Program-made: the position numbers and the translations under genes
Origin: Minisyncoccota bacterium
GTDB taxonomy: Bacteria; Patescibacteriota; Minisyncoccia; Phycocordibacterales; UBA12079
Direction: 5' to 3'
Assembly: GCA_028689435.1 (NCBI GenBank)
Contig: JAQTWD010000002.1
Coordinates: 1 to 48,970, forward strand
Length of the DNA: 48,970 bases
Shown: positions 2,913-45,348 of the stretch, piece by piece
How positions within the stretch are numbered: position 1 is the stretch's first letter
Layout of the letters: the number at the start of each line of letters is the position of its first letter
Notes under the pieces: model-generated
Databases searched by the model: none
What the model was told of the DNA's origin: nothing
The model's input: only the letters and a program-made list of their open reading frames with translations

Positions 2913-3320
2913 ATGAAAAAACATTTTTCAAAAATTTATTCTTTGGGTTTGTGGGGGATATTATCTATTCCTGTTTTAGCGAAAGCGTGGAGTCCTCTCA
3001 ACCCATCAATTTTGCCAAATTGTGCCAGAACACAGAGTGCTTCTCCGGATGGATGCCATTGGTCTGATTTAATAACATTAATGGATAACATTTTAGATGT
3101 CTTCATCTGGCTATCTATCCCAATCGCTACAATTTTGTTTGCATGGATCGGCTGGACACTGATAGTAGAAGGAAACAAATCAAGTGCTGTTTCAGCAGCA
3201 AAGGGAAGAATAATATCTTTGATAAAAGGAATGTTTTTTATTCTTGCATCGTGGCTTATCGTAAAAGTGATTGTGAGTATCTTGGCAAAACCAGAATATT
3301 ATCAAGACTTTTTAAATTAG
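2913..3320 (+). CDS. TrbC/VirB2-like (T4SS-pilin-like) small membrane protein
   Basis: Signal peptide, then two hydrophobic helices separated by a short charged loop (EGNKSSAVSAAKGR). Tandem paralogue of the next ORF. Family assignment is from memory of the CPR 'T4SS pilin' architecture. Confidence 0.45.
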   Translation: MKKHFSKIYSLGLWGILSIPVLAKAWSPLNPSILPNCARTQSASPDGCHWSDLITLMDNILDVFIWLSIPIATILFAWIGWTLIVEGNKSSAVSAAKGRIISLIKGMFFILASWLIVKVIVSILAKPEYYQDFLN

Positions 3321-3785: not shown

Positions 3786-4247
3786 TCACCGCATCTTGCT
3801 GATACGGAATGACACAACAGGATTACCAACTCTTGTGTCCGGCGGTAACTTCATGTCGAAGTACCGACAGCCTGTGTTACTAAAGATCTCTTTGGGACTG
3901 TTTATGTTCCAAAGTATCACTTCAGCACCGTCCAGCCCCTCCAGAGCATTTGCGCACCGGACATAAACACGGTCGTCACTAATGTTCTGATCAACAAAAT
4001 TGAACCATCCCCAGTGACCTTTAGGTACATGCACCGGCTCCGCTAGCCATTCGTCTTTCGCCGGATACACGAACTCCTCGCGATCCGGGTTGATTGTTTC
4101 CAGATACGCCCTTGGCCATTCAACCTTGGGGGTTGCTGACTCGGGAGAATCTTTTGTACAACTCGGCATCGGAAGTGATGCCGTCAAAATTACGATAACC
4201 AATAAAACGACTATTGTCGTCGGCCATCCCCATGTAATTGTTTTCAC
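3786..4247 (-). CDS. membrane-anchored/secreted hypothetical protein, coupled to the SPFH gene (G+C-rich island)
   Basis: GTG start overlaps the upstream TGA stop (GTGA). The SD GAGGAGG lies inside the upstream gene's last codons. N-terminal TM helix followed by a Cys (…LPMPSC). No family recognised. Confidence 0.6.
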   Translation of the reverse strand: MKTITWGWPTTIVVLLVIVILTASLPMPSCTKDSPESATPKVEWPRAYLETINPDREEFVYPAKDEWLAEPVHVPKGHWGWFNFVDQNISDDRVYVRCANALEGLDGAEVILWNINSPKEIFSNTGCRYFDMKLPPDTRVGNPVVSFRISKMR

Positions 4248-5377
4248 GGTTTACCTCCTCTTATTTGAGCACCTGCGACAGAACCCTTGGTGAAATCTCC
4301 AGCATTACCGTCAACAGTGATGACGGTCCTTTTATTTCTTTCGGCCTGGATTATTTTAGCCCTTTCAGACCCGTCCATTTCTTTCCAAACCTTTTTCCCT
4401 TCTTCAAGATCTCCGCCCCCGAGAAGTATCCAAAACAATTCCTGCTGAATAGTTTCCGATTTGGTTTGGGCAATCTCAACGTCCCTTTCAGCATTAGCGT
4501 CAGTAATCTCCTTCGGGATGGCAACTTCTGTAACCATTGCCTTCTTGATTGTCAAGCCCCATTCTTGGGCCGTTTCTTTGATACCGCCGACATCAATTTT
4601 TGAAAAATCTTCTGTCGGGTCTTTGATTAAACCCAAGACCATTGCTTCTGCAACGACCCTGTCTGTATCGGTTGAAGTGTGATTAACAATTTTATCAAGG
4701 GTTGTCCCCTCCAGAAGTTCTGAAAAAAGTCCTTTCACTCCGGGAAGTTTAACAACCTCAACCATGTTGGCAAGCCAGCGGATGTTTCTGCCAATCAAGC
4801 CTTCGAGCGCCTTAACAGCATTATCCATTCTTAAATAAGCGTATGGATTGCTTATAAAAAATTGAATCAACGTATCAACGCTCGCCGTCTTGTTGTCAGA
4901 CGACAAAACCCCTTTAATTTCGGGATCCATCGTCTGCTCCTTCAAAGAAACCTCCACAAAATCCATAAAAGGCTTGGGAAGGATCCAGCTATAGCCACCC
5001 GGGAGTAAAAACAAATTCGATAAATCACCCAGTATCATCGGCACGCCGACATGCACAGGGGGAATCTCGCGAATCCCATTCCACCCGAAAACCATCAAGA
5101 TCGCCAGTGCTGCGAGCACCGAGGCAATGATGCCACGAATGGTGAAACCACCGGTGAAATTGGTGACGATAATAGTCGCCACGAAAATCAACCCCGCGTT
5201 GAAAGCAATACCCACCAAAAACGTGGTAAGCCTACTAATAGGCTTTTTTACCTTTGCCGGCTCCTGTGTAGGTGCCGGTATTGGTGTTGGCACAGTTGGT
5301 GCAGGTGTTGGTGGCGTAGGTGATGTAGACGAAGGTCGACTTATCAGACTCCATGCATTCTTCAAAAAATTTTTCAT
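4244..5377 (-). CDS. SPFH/band-7 (prohibitin/flotillin-like) membrane protein with a Pro/Thr-rich N-terminal linker
   Basis: AGGAGGAG SD lies before ATG 5377 (MKNFLKNAW). PTPPTPAPTVPTPIPAPT linker, TM segment, then an SPFH-like core and a C-terminal charged E/K/A-rich region (ERDVEIAQTKSETIQQE). G+C-rich relative to its flanks. Confidence 0.6.
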   Translation of the reverse strand: MKNFLKNAWSLISRPSSTSPTPPTPAPTVPTPIPAPTQEPAKVKKPISRLTTFLVGIAFNAGLIFVATIIVTNFTGGFTIRGIIASVLAALAILMVFGWNGIREIPPVHVGVPMILGDLSNLFLLPGGYSWILPKPFMDFVEVSLKEQTMDPEIKGVLSSDNKTASVDTLIQFFISNPYAYLRMDNAVKALEGLIGRNIRWLANMVEVVKLPGVKGLFSELLEGTTLDKIVNHTSTDTDRVVAEAMVLGLIKDPTEDFSKIDVGGIKETAQEWGLTIKKAMVTEVAIPKEITDANAERDVEIAQTKSETIQQELFWILLGGGDLEEGKKVWKEMDGSERAKIIQAERNKRTVITVDGNAGDFTKGSVAGAQIRGGKP

Positions 5378-5500
5378 AACCACTCCTCCTTGGTCCTTTA
5401 CGGACACAAAAGTATATTGTTTTGTCAAAAATGACACTATTTCTACCTACAACTATACTATACAAAACCCTATTTAGTCAAGAGCAAACAACAAAAATAC

Positions 5501-5529
5501 TTGATTTGTCAATAGTGGTGTTATATAAT
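5501..5529 (+). promoter_or_regulatory. sigma70-type promoter for rnpB
   Basis: TTGATT, 17-nt spacer, TATAAT. The P1 helix of the RNase P RNA begins about 8 nt downstream. Confidence 0.55.
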
Positions 5530-5562
5530 GTCTTTGTTCTTTGATATTGGATAATTGTGCAA

Positions 5563-5702
5563 TCGTTCCTCGTTGCGCTGGCGCGCAAGTATAAAGTAGT
5601 AAGGTGTAAGTAGTAAGAAACGAAAAAATTTGCGAAGCAAATTTTTTACTTACTCCTTAATCCTTACACCTTGTTACTTGCTTCGAGCTTGGCGAGGAGC
5701 GA
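5563..5702 (+). repeat. hairpin insertion 1 in rnpB (P3 position)
   Basis: TCGTTCCTCG...CGAGGAGCGA closing stem. The interior is a long 'GTAAGTAGTAAG / CTTACTCCTTA' hairpin. Near-identical to insertion 2. Confidence 0.8.
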
Positions 5703-5726
5703 TTGTAAGGAAAGTCCGAACACTCG

Positions 5727-5868
5727 GTCGTTCCTCGTCGCGCTGGCGCGCAAGTATAAAGTAGTAAGGTGTAAGTAGTAAGAAACGAAAAAATTTGCTT
5801 CGCAAATTTTTTACTTACTCCTTAATCCTTTCTCCTTATTACTTGCTCCGAGCGTAGCGAGGAGCGAC
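5727..5868 (+). repeat. hairpin insertion 2 in rnpB (just 3' of the CR-I/P4 strand)
   Basis: GTCGTTCCTCG...CGAGGAGCGAC closing stem. Direct near-duplicate of 5563-5702. Confidence 0.8.
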
Positions 5869-6022
5869 AAGGGTAGCGGGTAACACCCGTCAAAAGTGAT
5901 TTTAGAGGTGCGAGCAGAGACGCTTAAAATTGAAAAATTTTAAGAACCCCTCGGGGTTAGTTTTTATGGAAACATAAAAAGTGAAACGGCTAAATCCTTA
6001 CCTGAGTGCAAGACCGTATCTA

Positions 6023-6235
6023 GTCGTTCCTCATTACATTCGGAACGAAATTTTTAATTTTTAATTTTTAATTTCTAAACAATGATTAAATTTAAAAATG
6101 TTTTAATTTTTAAACACAAAATTTGCTTTGGCAAATTTTGTCGTCCTGGTGTTTAAAAATTATTTCATTAAAAATTGTTTGAAAATTAAAAATTAAAAAT
6201 TAAAAATTTGAGGTCCGAGCGTAGCGAGGAGCGAC
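6023..6235 (+). repeat. hairpin insertion 3 in rnpB
   Basis: Same GTCGTTCCTC...CGAGGAGCGAC closing stem. The interior is built from AAATTAAAAATT-type words forming a long AT-rich hairpin. Confidence 0.75.
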
Positions 6236-6344
6236 TGGGGGAGTCGCTAGAGTTTGTTGGCAACAACAATCCCAGATAAATAATTATCGTCCGTCAATTG
6301 ACGGATACAGAATTCGGCTTATAGATATCAAAGAATAATTAAAT

Positions 6345-6380
6345 CAAAAATCCGCGCTAAACCGCGGATTTTTGATTTTT
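6345..6380 (+). terminator. rho-independent terminator after rnpB
   Basis: AAAAATCCGCG / CGCGGATTTTT stem followed by a T-tract. Confidence 0.7.
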
Positions 6381-6562
6381 TATTTTCTAAAAAACACCAG
6401 TGATATAAAAATTTTGACTACAAATCATACGGTCGTATAATTTGTAGTCAAAATTTTTTTGTTTCTTATGAATTAACCCTTACACCTTAATACTTGCGCG
6501 ACAGCGCTAGGTATTCACACTTTTTTTTAGTTTTTAAAATTTTGCGTTGTATAATAAGCTCA

Positions 6563-17928: not shown

Positions 17929-18159
17929 ACTCATATATGCAAAGAATTATATCATAGAGATAATATTTTTATAAACAATATATTTAAACATATTTAAAAA
18001 AATAATGAATCAACAATCTTAAACTTCTCACGATCGTGAAAAGTTTAAGATTGTTTATATTTTTTATATTTTAATTTTGACTACAAATCATACGGTCGTA
18101 TGATTTGTAGTCAATAATTTTTTTATACTTTAATTGTTAAATAAGAAATTAAATGACGA

Positions 18160-42456: not shown

Positions 42457-42600
42457 GGCCCCATCGTCTAGTGGGTACAGGAATGAAAAACAAACTGCTT
42501 TGTTTTTCATCCGGTTCTGAGCGAAGCGAAGAAATTTCCGTTATGAGCTTTAGCGAATAGGAAATAGGCAGGTTTTCAAAACCTGCTGTCTCAGAAAGCT
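42457..42600 (+). pseudogene. tRNA-Glu-derived partial copy interleaved with hairpin modules
   Basis: GGCCCCATCGTCTAGTGG (42457-42474) matches the real 5' end (42633-42650). GCAGGTTTTCAA (42568-42579) matches the anticodon arm (42659-42670). No T-arm or 3' acceptor strand is present. Confidence 0.55.
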
Positions 42601-42632
42601 CGAAAGCAGAATATGTTTGAAAATAATATAAT

Positions 42633-42704
42633 GGCCCCATCGTCTAGTGGTTAGGACAGCAGGTTTTCAATCTGTTAACCAGAGTTCAATTCTCTGTGGG
42701 GTCA
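42633..42704 (+). tRNA. tRNA-Glu (UUC)
   Basis: GGCCCCATCGTCTAGTGGTTAGGACAGCAGGTTTTCAATCTGTTAACCAGAGTTCAATTCTCTGTGGGGTCA. Anticodon loop TTTTCAA. Confidence 0.9.
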
Positions 42705-43023
42705 CAAATCGCAAAAACTGAAACACCAATCTGAATAAGATTGGTGTTTCAGTTTTTAGAAAAGCAAACAGTTTTGCTTTTCGGTGATTTGTGAAGGCGC
42801 AGGCATATTTTTATTTTGCACAACAAAATAAAAAAGCCGAGCCGAGGTCGACAAGTACTTAGATATTTTTAAGTACGAAGTACGAAAAAAATATTTAGTA
42901 ACTTGTGACCACACAAAATTTGTATGCAAAGCATCCCTAACAAACAAAAGACTTAATGATTTTTGCTTTTCTAAAAACAAAAACCGCACAAACAGAAGTA
43001 GTTCTGTTTGTGCGGGTGGTGTT

Positions 43024-44112: not shown

Positions 44113-45348
44113 ATGAAAATATTGGCAATTGAGACATCTTGCGACGAGACAGCAATCAGCATAATTGAAGCAAAAGGAGGACTTAAAAAACCTCAATTCA
44201 AAATCTTGGCTGACACAGTTATCTCTCAAATAAATATCCACAAAGAATATGGAGGTGTCTTCCCCGCTCTTGCAAAAAGAGAACACGTAAAGAACTTACT
44301 TCCGATATTAGGGGAAACTTTGAAGAAAGCGAAGATGCTATCATTTGAAAAAAATCACAAAACACAAATTACAAATTACAAACAAAACACAAAATACAAA
44401 ACACAAATTACAAAAATCAAAAAAATTTTAGAAAGAGAGGTTGAAATGGTTGAGCCTTTGTTAGATTTTTTAAAAAATAACAAAATACCAAAAATAGATG
44501 CAATCGCTGTGACACAGGGGCCAGGACTAGAGCCTGCTCTTTGGACAGGAATAAATTTTGCAAAGGCTTTGGCGTTGGCGTGGGACAAACCTTTTATTCC
44601 TGTTAATCATATGGAAGGACACCTCGTCGCTTCGCTCCTCAAGTTAAAAGTAACAAGTAGCAAGTATAAAGGAGTTGAGTTTCCTGCTCTTGGTTTATTG
44701 ATAAGCGGAGGTCATACAGAGTTAATAATGGTTAAAGATTGGATGGATTATAAATTGATCGGTCAAACCAGAGACGATGCTGTCGGAGAAGCTTATGACA
44801 AGGTAGCAAGAATGCTTGGCCTTCCCTACCCAGGTGGTCCTGAAATATCAAAACTCTCCGAAGAATTTTCTAAAAACTACTCACTACCCACTACTCACTA
44901 CCCACTACCCCGTCCAATGCTTCATACAAACGATTTTGATTTTTCTTTTTCCGGATTAAAAACGGCTGTTTTGTATACCGTTAAAAATATTAAAAACCAT
45001 GCCTACCGGCAGGCAGGAATGACACCCGAAATCAAAAAAGAAATTTGTGCAGAATTTGAAAATGCGGTTGTTGATGTTTTGCTTTTTAAAACGAAAAAGG
45101 CTGTTGCAAAAAATAATATAAAGACATTGATTTTGGGAGGTGGTGTAACCGCAAATAAAAAAATACGAAAAGAATTTAAAAAATTGGAAAAAGAATTAGG
45201 TATTGATGTTTTAGTACCAGATGCAAAACATTCTACCGACAATGCTGTGATGATAGGAATTGCAGGTTATTTTAGATATTTAGATAACAAGGTTCTACTA
45301 CCAAACAAAACAGCAAAGATCAGAGCAGAAGGAAATTTGGCATTATAA
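44113..45348 (+). CDS. tsaD: tRNA N6-adenosine threonylcarbamoyltransferase TsaD, with four in-frame low-complexity insertions
   Basis: IETSCDET, HMEGH, SGGHT, GLPYPGGP and FSFSGLKT motifs. 411 aa versus about 340 aa typical. Confidence 0.9.
   Translation: MKILAIETSCDETAISIIEAKGGLKKPQFKILADTVISQINIHKEYGGVFPALAKREHVKNLLPILGETLKKAKMLSFEKNHKTQITNYKQNTKYKTQITKIKKILEREVEMVEPLLDFLKNNKIPKIDAIAVTQGPGLEPALWTGINFAKALALAWDKPFIPVNHMEGHLVASLLKLKVTSSKYKGVEFPALGLLISGGHTELIMVKDWMDYKLIGQTRDDAVGEAYDKVARMLGLPYPGGPEISKLSEEFSKNYSLPTTHYPLPRPMLHTNDFDFSFSGLKTAVLYTVKNIKNHAYRQAGMTPEIKKEICAEFENAVVDVLLFKTKKAVAKNNIKTLILGGGVTANKKIRKEFKKLEKELGIDVLVPDAKHSTDNAVMIGIAGYFRYLDNKVLLPNKTAKIRAEGNLAL

Follow-up and report, generated by a model that had tools for sequence, protein, structure and literature searches.

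Results

The rnpB locus and its three hairpin blocks

The stretch of DNA analysed here (the window, 48,970 nt) comes from a Candidatus Campbellbacteria bacterium and carries a class-A RNase P RNA gene, rnpB, of 801 nt, compared with 323 nt for an insertion-free orthologue. The difference is accounted for by three hairpin blocks with a common closing stem, which sit on the tips of three helices of the RNA and together add 491 nt, or 61% of the gene. The features of the locus are collected in Table 1. Loci gathered from related bacteria and from database scans are designated here by L numbers; L007 is the insertion-free rnpB orthologue.

Table 1. Features of the rnpB locus, in window coordinates
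Position	Strand	Feature	Observations
5501..5529	+	Promoter-like site TTGATT-17-TATAAT, placing the transcript start at about 5536-5538	10 of 12 consensus positions; sequence conserved in relatives
5536..6336	+	rnpB, class-A RNase P RNA gene including three inserted hairpin elements	P1 is 5537-5547 paired with 6325-6335 (11 perfect pairs), plus a G5536-U6336 wobble pair
5563..5702	+	Element copy 1 (block 1), capping P3	P3 base is 5557-5562 paired with 5703-5708; local hairpin -62.6 kcal/mol; relatives carry either a short P3 or a different long P3 hairpin here
5709..5721	+	CR-I / P4 5' strand, GGAAAGTCCGAAC	Lies between copies 1 and 2
5728..5867	+	Element copy 2 (block 2), in the hairpin between P5 and P7 (P5.1-like by position)	G5727 and C5868 extend the stem; -66.8 kcal/mol; same site and flanks filled in L001-L005 and L011, short in L007, L009 and L020
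5869..6022	+	Uninterrupted specificity-domain core, from P7-P14 through to the P15 5' strand	Identical or nearly identical in close relatives; alignable to RF00010
6024..6234	+	Element copy 3 (block 3), capping P16/P17, with an AT-rich heptamer-repeat palindrome as its interior	-79.8 kcal/mol; site filled by the same module in L001, L006, L009 and L020, short hairpin in L007, L011 and L037
6290..6305	+	Short hairpin between the P2 and P4 3' strands (P19-like by position)	Empty here; carries the element in L009 and L020
6307..6324	+	CR-V / P4 3' strand, ACAGAATTCGGCTTATAG	
6341..6378	+	Intrinsic terminator-like hairpin followed by a T run	Directly after the gene
6451..6507	+	Solo arm outside the transcript	Truncated arm of a block-1/2-type element; lacks the terminal motif

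A preliminary description, made from the sequence alone, had recognized an rnpB gene of roughly double size with three insertions sharing one closing stem, the first two being near-identical duplicates flanking the CR-I/P4 strand and the third having a different, AT-rich interior, together with a solo arm just outside the gene. We confirmed each of these observations. The universal regions CR-I (GGAAAGUCCG) and CR-V (ACAGAAnnCGGCUUA) are present, with GGAAAGTCCGAAC at 5709 and ACAGAATTCGGCTTA at 6307, and the RNA is closed by P1/P2. The closing-stem sequence TCGTTCCTC begins each of the three blocks, at 5563, 5728 and 6024, and its partner GAGGAGCGA ends them at 5702, 5867 and 6234. Allowing one mismatch, there are 17 matches in the window against 5.9 expected, and 0 of 100 shuffles reached 17. 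The longer 3' end, GAGCGNAGCGAGGAGCGA, has 4 matches in the window, all inside the gene, against 0.03 expected. Blocks 1 and 2 are 93% identical over 140 nt. Block 3 shares its last 22 nt exactly with block 2 and has a related tip (AAATTTGC..GCAAATTT), but its interior is an AT-rich palindrome with 42-nt arms that are 90% complementary.

The core of the RNase P RNA is intact

Alignment to the bacterial RNase P covariance model (Rfam RF00010), which had been put forward in advance as the way to check whether the blocks fall in insert states, does not work directly, because the model cannot span the inserts of 140-211 nt. The window gives no hit at the gathering score of 100 bits, and a search in E-value mode returned only a partial hit of 51.5 bits at 6137-6336. 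In relatives with inserts the model mis-assigns 5' helices, for example aligning model P3 to the tip of copy 2 in L001 and swallowing P7/P8 into a 155-nt gap in L011. Covariance-model alignments were therefore used only for the insertion-free orthologue; a custom model of the core, of about 310 positions, was not built, as an 800-nt hit would exceed the window of such a model. L007 scores 107.3 bits over model positions 1-367. With the blocks removed, the 310 nt that remain of the window's gene align end to end with L007 (80% identity) and with L011 after its single insert is removed (84% identity). Cleavage of pre-tRNA 5' leaders was not assayed.

The hairpin module occupies different helix tips in related rnpB genes

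An exact-protein lookup of the window's MurG found no record, and relatives were reached instead through MurG homologues; synteny is lost in L013 and L014. Comparison of eight related rnpB genes showed that the same module sits at five different helix tips (P3, the P5.1-like hairpin, P9, P16/17 and the P19-like hairpin), or is absent. The window and L001 carry it at P3, the P5.1-like hairpin and P16/17, and L003-L005 at the same three sites but with variant ends at P3 and P16/17. L006 carries it at P9 and P16/17, L009 at P16/17 and the P19-like hairpin, L020 at these same two sites as two near-identical copies, L037 at P3 (with variant ends) and P9, and L011 at the P5.1-like hairpin only, while L007 has none. 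The three blocks of the window sit exactly where relatives have short hairpins. Strains whose MurG proteins are 95-96% identical have essentially invariant rnpB cores, yet they differ completely in the P3 hairpin and in the P16/17 interior or stem.

The same family in 16S and 23S rRNA genes

The element was also found in rRNA genes of other candidate phyla radiation (CPR) bacteria. Mapped to E. coli numbering, the 23S sites are H25 (539/554; L060, L169, L171 and L253), H45 (1158/1185; L066), H63 (1703/1770) and H68 (1854/1883), and the 16S sites are h6 (from position 68) and h17 (432/506). H25 and H45 are the two canonical sites of 23S rRNA intervening sequences. The window itself holds no rRNA gene. 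The complete Campbellbacteria genome CP011215.1 carries the element in both its 23S gene (L082) and its rnpB (L099), and the L082 copy is 85.6% identical to window block 2 and 82.0% identical to block 1, over about 138 nt including the interior. This identity over the interiors argues against the rRNA and rnpB copies being unrelated once the search-imposed motif is set aside. In contig LBUF02000011 the 16S and 23S copies are 98.9% identical.

All 10 paired CPR-type hits in the genome-collection scan lie in rnpB or rRNA genes. Of the 9 CPR-type metagenome hits, 7 lie in rRNA genes, one lies about 280 nt upstream of a 16S gene and one has an unknown host; motif-based flags of rnpB on L199 and L247 proved false. 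In the window the end motif occurs only inside rnpB. No paired elements were found in 2.9 million viral contigs, which gives no indication of phage carriage.

All 11 sites carry the element in the sense orientation, and pairing favours the transcribed strand. Over the terminal 21 pairs of 23 copies, the sense strand gives 343 Watson-Crick pairs, 77 G-U pairs and 63 mismatches, so that 87% of positions pair when G-U is counted, whereas the antisense strand would give 31 G-U pairs and 109 mismatches. The shared G-U asymmetry is largely inherited from one ancestral element, however, and the 23 copies are not independent evidence for RNA-level selection. The outermost pair covaries, with U-A, C-G, G-C and A-U all represented.

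Relationship to mobile elements and introns

The complementary 21-nt ends are terminal inverted repeats, as in MITEs, but no target-site duplication is visible at any of the sites inspected, where the flanks instead continue the host helix. As to whether the element is dispersed through one genome alongside an autonomous, transposase-encoding relative, the copies in the window occur only in rnpB, apart from the one truncated arm, no intact intergenic copy and no linked transposase were found, and whole genomes were not scanned; these observations do not settle the matter either way. The terminal motif, of 19-22 nt, is shared with a very abundant but apparently undescribed intergenic inverted-repeat family, dispersed in Chloroflexota, Bacteroidota and many other phyla. 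In that family the motif has the form AGATTCC...GGAATCT. A search of 20 loci totalling 112 kb for a known RNA family corresponding to this widespread single hairpin gave nothing at the Rfam gathering score. For hairpins with an 11-nt loop, a fold of tandem G-A pairs plus a GNA triloop is proposed; it was not probed.

A link to REP/RAYT or IS200/IS605-derived palindromic elements was also considered. A Y1_Tnp gene of the IS200 type lies 200 nt downstream of rnpB in L006, but the hairpins next to it are unrelated in sequence and no such gene adjoins the other loci, so that the link is not supported, although association with a Y1 (HUH) transposase is neither demonstrated nor excluded by these data. 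An association with 23S_rRNA_IVP (PF05635) genes was rejected: tblastn of two such proteins against all loci found them only between ftsW and murG in L006, L011 and L012, never next to the motif, and their flanks lack it. The blocks do not match intron models, since no group I or group II family appears among the covariance-model hits in 5400-6500 even at E values up to 10, while the same method detects a genuine group I intron in the 23S gene of L082.

Discussion

The preliminary description inferred that a hairpin insertion element has colonised an essential ribozyme at positions that tolerate helix extensions, and the comparative data support this interpretation. It had also named an outcome that would count against it, namely that relatives show the same helices as lineage-typical expansions with no repeat relationship to other loci; the occurrence of the module at other helix tips in other Campbellbacteria rnpB genes and in rRNA genes excludes this. 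Its alternative, that the blocks are intervening sequences excised from the mature RNA, is in our view not a rival but the probable fate of the element at the RNA level.

What the analysis demonstrates is that the three blocks are copies of an ORF-less palindromic repeat element, 115-211 nt long in the 23 copies tabulated, with conserved ends, 5' (T/C)CGTTCCTCAYTGCRTTYGGAAC and 3' CGAGCGNAGCGAGGAGCG(A/G), that pair with each other in the transcript, and with a fast-evolving interior palindrome rich in short repeats. The family lives almost only on helix tips of stable-RNA genes in Parcubacteria-type CPR bacteria, and is copied between sites and between genes. We infer beyond this that the peripheral positions of the three copies allow the catalytic core still to fold, that all three are transcribed as part of the precursor, and that they most likely share the fate of classic 23S rRNA intervening sequences, in which RNase III would cut the long double-stranded stems without religation and leave a mature ribozyme of about four base-paired fragments. 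No transcript data were examined, so that excision and fragmentation rest on inference, and we hold this account as a whole with only moderate confidence, as somewhat more likely than not. How the DNA copy reaches a new helix tip was not identified, and some of the spread may be gene conversion between existing hairpins rather than transposition.

Several considerations make RNase III processing plausible. The family occupies the 23S sites where intervening sequences are known to be excised, and each block is a long, mostly continuous duplex, a generic RNase III substrate. An RNase III gene lies on the same contig as an element-bearing rRNA operon (L163) and close homologues are widespread in Parcubacteria; the enzyme is not encoded in the window and was not sought in the rest of this organism's genome. 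Tsurumaki et al. 2024 (PMC11270868) independently suggest that the short ORF-less rRNA insertions of CPR bacteria are RNase III-type intervening sequences. Furthermore, if left in place, blocks 1 and 2 favour a misfold that buries the P4 strand, at -152.4 kcal/mol against -130.0 kcal/mol for the two local hairpins.

The chief competing view is that the same mobile family is retained, so that the mature RNase P RNA is an intact chain of about 800 nt and the hairpins are neutral, selfish helix extensions, like expansion segments, tolerated because they project from peripheral loops. Every copy does sit on a peripheral helix tip, with the core intact and each block folding as a closed local hairpin; the stems of copies 1 and 2 contain many G-U pairs and small internal loops, which could reduce RNase III cutting; and Lui et al. 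2021 (PMC8172020) draw CPR RNase P RNAs with "large extensions of helices" as continuous RNAs. The persistence of copy 2 at one site across lineages with 64-100% MurG identity would also fit a retained, tolerated or even useful helix. Against this stand the RNase III and misfolding arguments given above, and we regard retention as a possible but less favoured reading. A related idea, that the stem is a functional module such as a binding platform for a CPR-specific protein shared by ribosomes and RNase P, as L7Ae-bound K-turns are shared by archaeal rRNA and RNase P RNA, draws on the sequence conservation of the roughly 21-nt ends across Campbellbacteria, Peribacteria, Spechtbacteria, Komeilibacteria and other Parcubacteria and across three host RNAs, as well as on the persistence of copy 2. 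It is unlikely, since presence and position differ between close relatives, one orthologue has no copy at all and still looks fully functional, the stem is a plain duplex with no K-turn-like or other internal-loop motif, and interiors turn over freely.

That the long gene is an assembly artefact of repeat-induced misjoins, or a decayed pseudogene, is very unlikely. One relative's assembly (L005) does have a run of N inside copy 2, showing that the repeats trouble assemblers, but the same three-insert architecture appears in independent NCBI, ENA and JGI assemblies and in a closed genome, the promoter-like site and terminator are intact, and a core that is essentially invariant between strains while the inserts vary is the pattern of a gene under purifying selection.

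The closest parallel is with the 23S rRNA intervening sequences of Salmonella, Campylobacter, Leptospira, Coxiella and others, processed by RNase III (PMC11270868, PMC4990558). These are likewise extra stem-loops that replace the tip of a helix in a stable-RNA gene, are sporadic among close relatives, as the present element is, and are thought to spread horizontally. Here, however, the hosts also include 16S rRNA and RNase P RNA, the latter at up to three copies per gene and five sites, and one sequence family is shared across all three RNAs. We know of no report of an intervening sequence in rnpB, and literature searches found none; a search by sequence strings returned only unrelated primer matches. 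The short ORF-less "insertion sequences" of CPR rRNA genes (PMC11270868), described as uncharacterised, mostly under 200 bp, without intron model or ORF, and concentrated at sites matching the known intervening-sequence positions, are probably partly the same objects, but that study reported neither a shared repeat family nor conserved termini and did not examine RNase P RNA, a term that does not occur in it. Lui, Nielsen and Arkin 2021 (PMC8172020) report that CPR rnpB genes fall below Rfam thresholds, as is the case here, and show extended helices, for example P15; in the sections consulted these are presented as diverged structure and not described as copies of a repeat element shared with rRNA genes.

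A precedent for genomic repeats inside a helix of rnpB is provided by the STRR repeats in the RNase P RNA gene of heterocyst-forming cyanobacteria (Vioque 1997, Nucleic Acids Res 25:3471). The helix concerned is P12. Those are tandem heptamer repeats in a single helix, not a palindromic element with conserved termini at several helices, and they are not shared with rRNA. MITEs and other palindromic repeats that enter genes, such as Rickettsia palindromic elements, are also small and ORF-less with inverted ends, and tolerate or exploit positions that do not break the host product; the present element differs in lacking a visible target-site duplication and an identified partner transposase, in its strictly sense orientation and in its almost exclusive use of stable-RNA genes as hosts.

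RNase P RNA is treated as a single-chain, size-constrained universal ribozyme, whereas here an essential copy tolerates large additions at three helix tips, two of them bracketing the catalytic P4 strand. A further-reaching possibility, which we consider somewhat less likely than not, is that these bacteria mature their RNase P RNA by cutting out three intervening sequences, so that the active ribozyme would be a naturally split assembly of about four RNA pieces, one of roughly 25-30 nt carrying the catalytic CR-I/P4 strand, and the element would be a mobile intervening sequence specialised for stable RNAs in general and inserting in one orientation only. If the hairpins are excised, this would be, to our knowledge, the first natural multi-fragment bacterial RNase P RNA. 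The findings also join two puzzles, in that the "diverged" CPR RNase P RNAs that escape covariance models and the uncharacterised short insertions in CPR rRNA genes are probably, at least in part, the same repeat family. Masking elements by their conserved ends should recover rnpB and clean up rRNA gene models in CPR genomes, and the link to the intergenic family of other phyla raises the question of what recognises the shared motif.

Other similarities in the window

Two further matches to the element were examined. The TCGCTCCTC match at 44632 lies inside a coding region and is a chance match. The solo arm downstream of the terminator is real as a similarity, being 82% complementary to the 5' arm of blocks 1 and 2 over 57 nt, and it is conserved in relatives, with a variable number of 14-nt repeat units.

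Genomic context and identity of the gene

The gene lies between a Band_7/SPFH gene on the minus strand and ftsW-murG on the plus strand, and MurG homologues place the organism in Candidatus Campbellbacteria, a group of CPR/Patescibacteria. The positions of the features identified in the window and in the comparison loci are collected in the table below. Between a promoter-like site and a terminator-like hairpin with a T run lie the two universal RNase P RNA motifs and an 11-bp P1 helix. The three hairpin blocks that the preliminary description had reported within this gene were confirmed exactly. Blocks 1 and 2 are 93% identical over 140 nt, and block 3 shares its last 22 nt with block 2. The long 3' end motif of the blocks occurs four times in the window, against 0.03 expected, and all four occurrences are inside this gene.

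Positions of features in the window and in the comparison loci
Location	Strand	Feature
Window 4244-5437	minus	Band_7/SPFH gene
Window 5501-5529		Promoter-like TTGATT-17-TATAAT, putting the transcript start at about 5536-5538
Window 5537-5547 and 6325-6335		Paired strands of the P1 helix
Window 5563-5868		Region in which the minimum-free-energy fold pairs block 1 with block 2
Window 5709		Universal RNase P RNA motif GGAAAGTCCGAAC
Window 6137-6336		Only part aligned to the Rfam model in permissive mode
Window 6307		Universal RNase P RNA motif ACAGAATTCGGCTTA
Window 6341-6378		Terminator-like hairpin of 16 bp followed by a T run
Window 6407-6458 and 18073-18124	both	Two copies of a 52-nt near-perfect palindrome with sigma-70-like hexamers
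Window 6451-6507; L001 3733-3833; L003 3767-3833		Truncated arm of a block-1/2-type element
Window 42457-42632		18-nt duplicate of the 5' end of tRNA-Glu(UUC) and the small hairpins that follow it
Window 42633-42705		tRNA-Glu(UUC) gene
L005 about 3250-3300		Run of N inside element copy 2 of rnpB
L009 about 2838-2938 (P3) and L006 about 1738-1798 (P5.1-like site)		Second, unrelated hairpin family
L006 2579-3253 and 4601-4945; L011/L012 4621-4968		IS200-type Y1 transposase gene 200 nt downstream of rnpB in L006; 23S_rRNA_IVP (PF05635) genes between ftsW and murG in L006, L011 and L012, whose flanks in L006, the only ones read, are AT-rich inverted repeats without the TTCCTC motif
L082 6767-7001		Group I intron (RF00028, 62.9 bits) in 23S rRNA

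Alignment to the Rfam RNase P model, RF00010, had been put forward beforehand as one way to test whether this is rnpB. Rfam does not call the gene at its gathering score, and in permissive mode the alignment is partial and scores 51.5 bits. Orthologous loci were therefore retrieved through the conserved rnpB-ftsW-murG neighborhood. One orthologue, L007, whose MurG is 69% identical, has a 323-nt gene with no long hairpins, and it scores 107.3 bits on RF00010, against a gathering score of 100, over the whole model. With the three blocks removed, the window gene is 310 nt and aligns end to end with L007 at 80% identity, and with a second orthologue, L011, after removal of its single insert, at 84%. 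Block 1 caps P3, block 2 caps the small hairpin between P5 and P7, which is P5.1-like by position and lies in insert states of the model in L007, and block 3 caps P16/P17. The gene is therefore a genuine class-A RNase P RNA carrying 491 nt of inserted hairpins.

Variation among orthologous rnpB genes

The comparison with rnpB in related genomes, also named in advance as a test, showed that the blocks are copies of a mobile module, so that the proposal that a hairpin insertion element has colonized this ribozyme gene is supported.

Sites carrying the module in the rnpB genes compared (L numbers denote individual loci)
rnpB gene	Sites
Window, L001/L099	P3, P5.1-like, P16/17
L003-L005	Same three sites, with variant ends at P3 and P16/17
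L006	P9, P16/17
L009/L067	P16/17, P19-like hairpin between the P2 and P4 3' strands
L020	P16/17, P19-like (two near-identical copies)
L037	P3 (variant ends), P9
L011/L012	P5.1-like only
L007/L008	None

Strains whose MurG is 95-96% identical to that of the window have an essentially invariant rnpB core. They nevertheless carry a different long P3 hairpin, with base pairs changed on both sides of the stem base, and their P16/17 insert has a different interior or even a different stem. The window's block 1 is thus a recent copy of block 2. A second hairpin family, unrelated to the main one and with the closing stem CCAGACACCAC...GTGGTGTCTGG, also written CCAGACACCAC...GTGGTGT(C/T)TGG, occupies different rnpB helices in two genomes, so more than one hairpin module moves among these sites.

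A truncated arm of a block-1/2-type element lies just upstream of the ftsW promoter-like site. It is 82-86% complementary over 57 nt to the 5' arms of the hairpins inside rnpB, and relatives carry 2-4 tandem 14-nt units (CTTACACCTTTCTA) in it; we have no data on whether it ever pairs with the RNase P precursor.

Copies of the element in rRNA genes

A scan of one genome per species for the 5' end motif returned more than 119 loci. Ten of these have the matching 3' end within 95-165 nt, and all ten are CPR bacteria in which the copy lies inside a stable-RNA gene: rnpB in L020, L037, L067 and L099, 23S rRNA in L060, L066, L082, L128 and L132, and 16S rRNA in L068. Mapping of the flanks onto E. 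coli rRNA placed the rRNA copies in 23S helix 25 (539/554), helix 45 (1158/1185), helix 63 (1703/1770) and helix 68 (1854/1883), and in 16S helix 6 (from position 68) and helix 17 (432/506). Helices 25 and 45 are the classic sites of RNase III-processed intervening sequences.

The closed genome CP011215.1 has the element in both its 23S gene (L082) and its rnpB (L099). Its 23S copy is 85.6% identical to the window's block 2 and 82.0% identical to block 1 over about 138 nt, interiors included. The same 23S gene, which carries the hairpin element in helix 68, also carries a group I intron about 300 nt downstream. In contig LBUF02000011 the 16S and 23S copies are 98.9% identical. In a metagenome scan, nine hits were of the CPR type, of which seven lie in rRNA genes, one lies about 280 nt upstream of a 16S gene and one has an unidentified host.

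Structure of the element

The two ends form a stem of about 21 bp. Across 23 curated copies at 11 sites, the transcribed strand gives 343 Watson-Crick pairs, 77 G-U pairs and 63 mismatches, whereas the opposite strand would give 31 G-U pairs and 109 mismatches. The outermost pair covaries through all four Watson-Crick types. Every copy is in the sense orientation relative to its host RNA; with 11 distinct sites, this has a probability of about 2^-11 if orientation were random. Each end can alternatively fold on its own as a small hairpin with an 11-nt loop. On the purine-rich strand, the loop GAGCGNAGCGA could stack as tandem G-A pairs plus a GNA triloop, in the manner of d(GCGAAGC) mini-hairpins, although this fold was not tested. 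The interiors are palindromes built from short repeat words, and they differ between close relatives. No target-site duplication is visible, and the flanks simply continue the host helix.

Possibly related repeats in other phyla

Most of the metagenome hits belong to a different subfamily, AGATTCCTCACTNCGTTCGGAATGAC, then a GC-rich palindrome, then GTCATTCCGARCGNAGYGAGGAATCT. These hits are not in rRNA or rnpB genes and lie between genes: only 2.6% have an open frame of 150 codons or more through their midpoint, against 77.5% of random positions. Related single hairpins of the form GTCATTCC-TCACTNCGTTC-GGAATGAC occur in Chloroflexia, Bacteroidota, Treponema, Dehalococcoidia and others. Together the paired family and the single hairpins (loci L015-L133 and L135-L254) occur in Chloroflexota, Bacteroidota, Spirochaetota, Acidobacteriota and some archaea. 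No Rfam family covers the single hairpins, no viral contig searched carries the paired form, and a literature search by sequence string found no paper. This abundant inverted-repeat family is apparently undescribed. The similarity to the CPR element is confined to the 19-22-nt terminal motif used in the search, and the relationship is a lead rather than a demonstration of common descent.

Proposed processing of the hairpins

The comparisons establish a repeat family specialized for helix tips of stable-RNA genes, copied within and between genes in the sense orientation only and with conserved self-pairing ends. What happens to the RNA, in contrast, is inferred. In the most likely scheme, the hairpins are transcribed with the precursor and, like intervening sequences at the same 23S sites, are cut out by RNase III without religation, which would leave RNase P RNA as about four fragments held together by P1-P5, P15 and the stem stubs. 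This scheme is supported by the occupancy of the canonical sites, by the long duplexes, by an RNase III gene encoded on the same contig as an element-bearing rRNA operon and widespread in Parcubacteria, and by the same suggestion made for short CPR rRNA insertions by Tsurumaki et al. 2024. It rests on no transcript data, and RNase III was not verified in this genome. A naturally split RNase P ribozyme, produced by excision of a mobile intervening sequence specific to stable RNAs, is a possibility that we hold only tentatively.

The main rival is that the hairpins are simply retained, as Lui et al. 2021 implicitly draw for other CPR RNase P RNAs. If blocks 1 and 2 are kept, however, a strong misfold is predicted: the minimum-free-energy fold pairs block 1 with block 2 (-152.4 kcal/mol) instead of forming two local hairpins (-130.0 kcal/mol), which buries the catalytic CR-I/P4 strand by enclosing it in a loop. 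The 3-nt tips of the two copies, GAA and TTC, are reverse complements of each other. An assembly artifact is ruled out, as independent assemblies and a closed genome show the same architecture, although the run of N inside element copy 2 of rnpB in the public assembly GCA_001774425.1 (L005) shows that these palindromic duplicates break short-read assemblies.

Relation to previously described systems

Helix extensions and Rfam failures have already been described in CPR rnpB (PMC8172020), as have uncharacterized short ORF-less insertions in CPR rRNA genes (PMC11270868), and repeats inside rnpB have a precedent in cyanobacterial STRR sequences (Vioque 1997). In the literature searched we found no recognition that the rnpB extensions and the rRNA insertions are one repeat family with defined termini, nor that RNase P RNA hosts elements of the intervening-sequence type, here three per gene and at five sites across the eight genes compared, nor that the termini are shared with a large intergenic repeat family in other phyla.

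Other repeats in the window

An 18-nt duplicate of the 5' end of tRNA-Glu(UUC) (GGCCCCATCGTCTAGTGG) lies 176 nt upstream of the real gene. About 160 nt of small hairpins lie between, including the string CTGAGCGAAGCGAAG, and ARAGORN and Rfam call only the downstream tRNA. In addition, the 52-nt near-perfect palindrome carries TTGACT-16-TATAAT on the plus strand and TTGACT-16-TATGAT on the minus strand. It occurs twice in the window at 96% identity, both times between genes, and may be a small repeat that acts as a bidirectional promoter.
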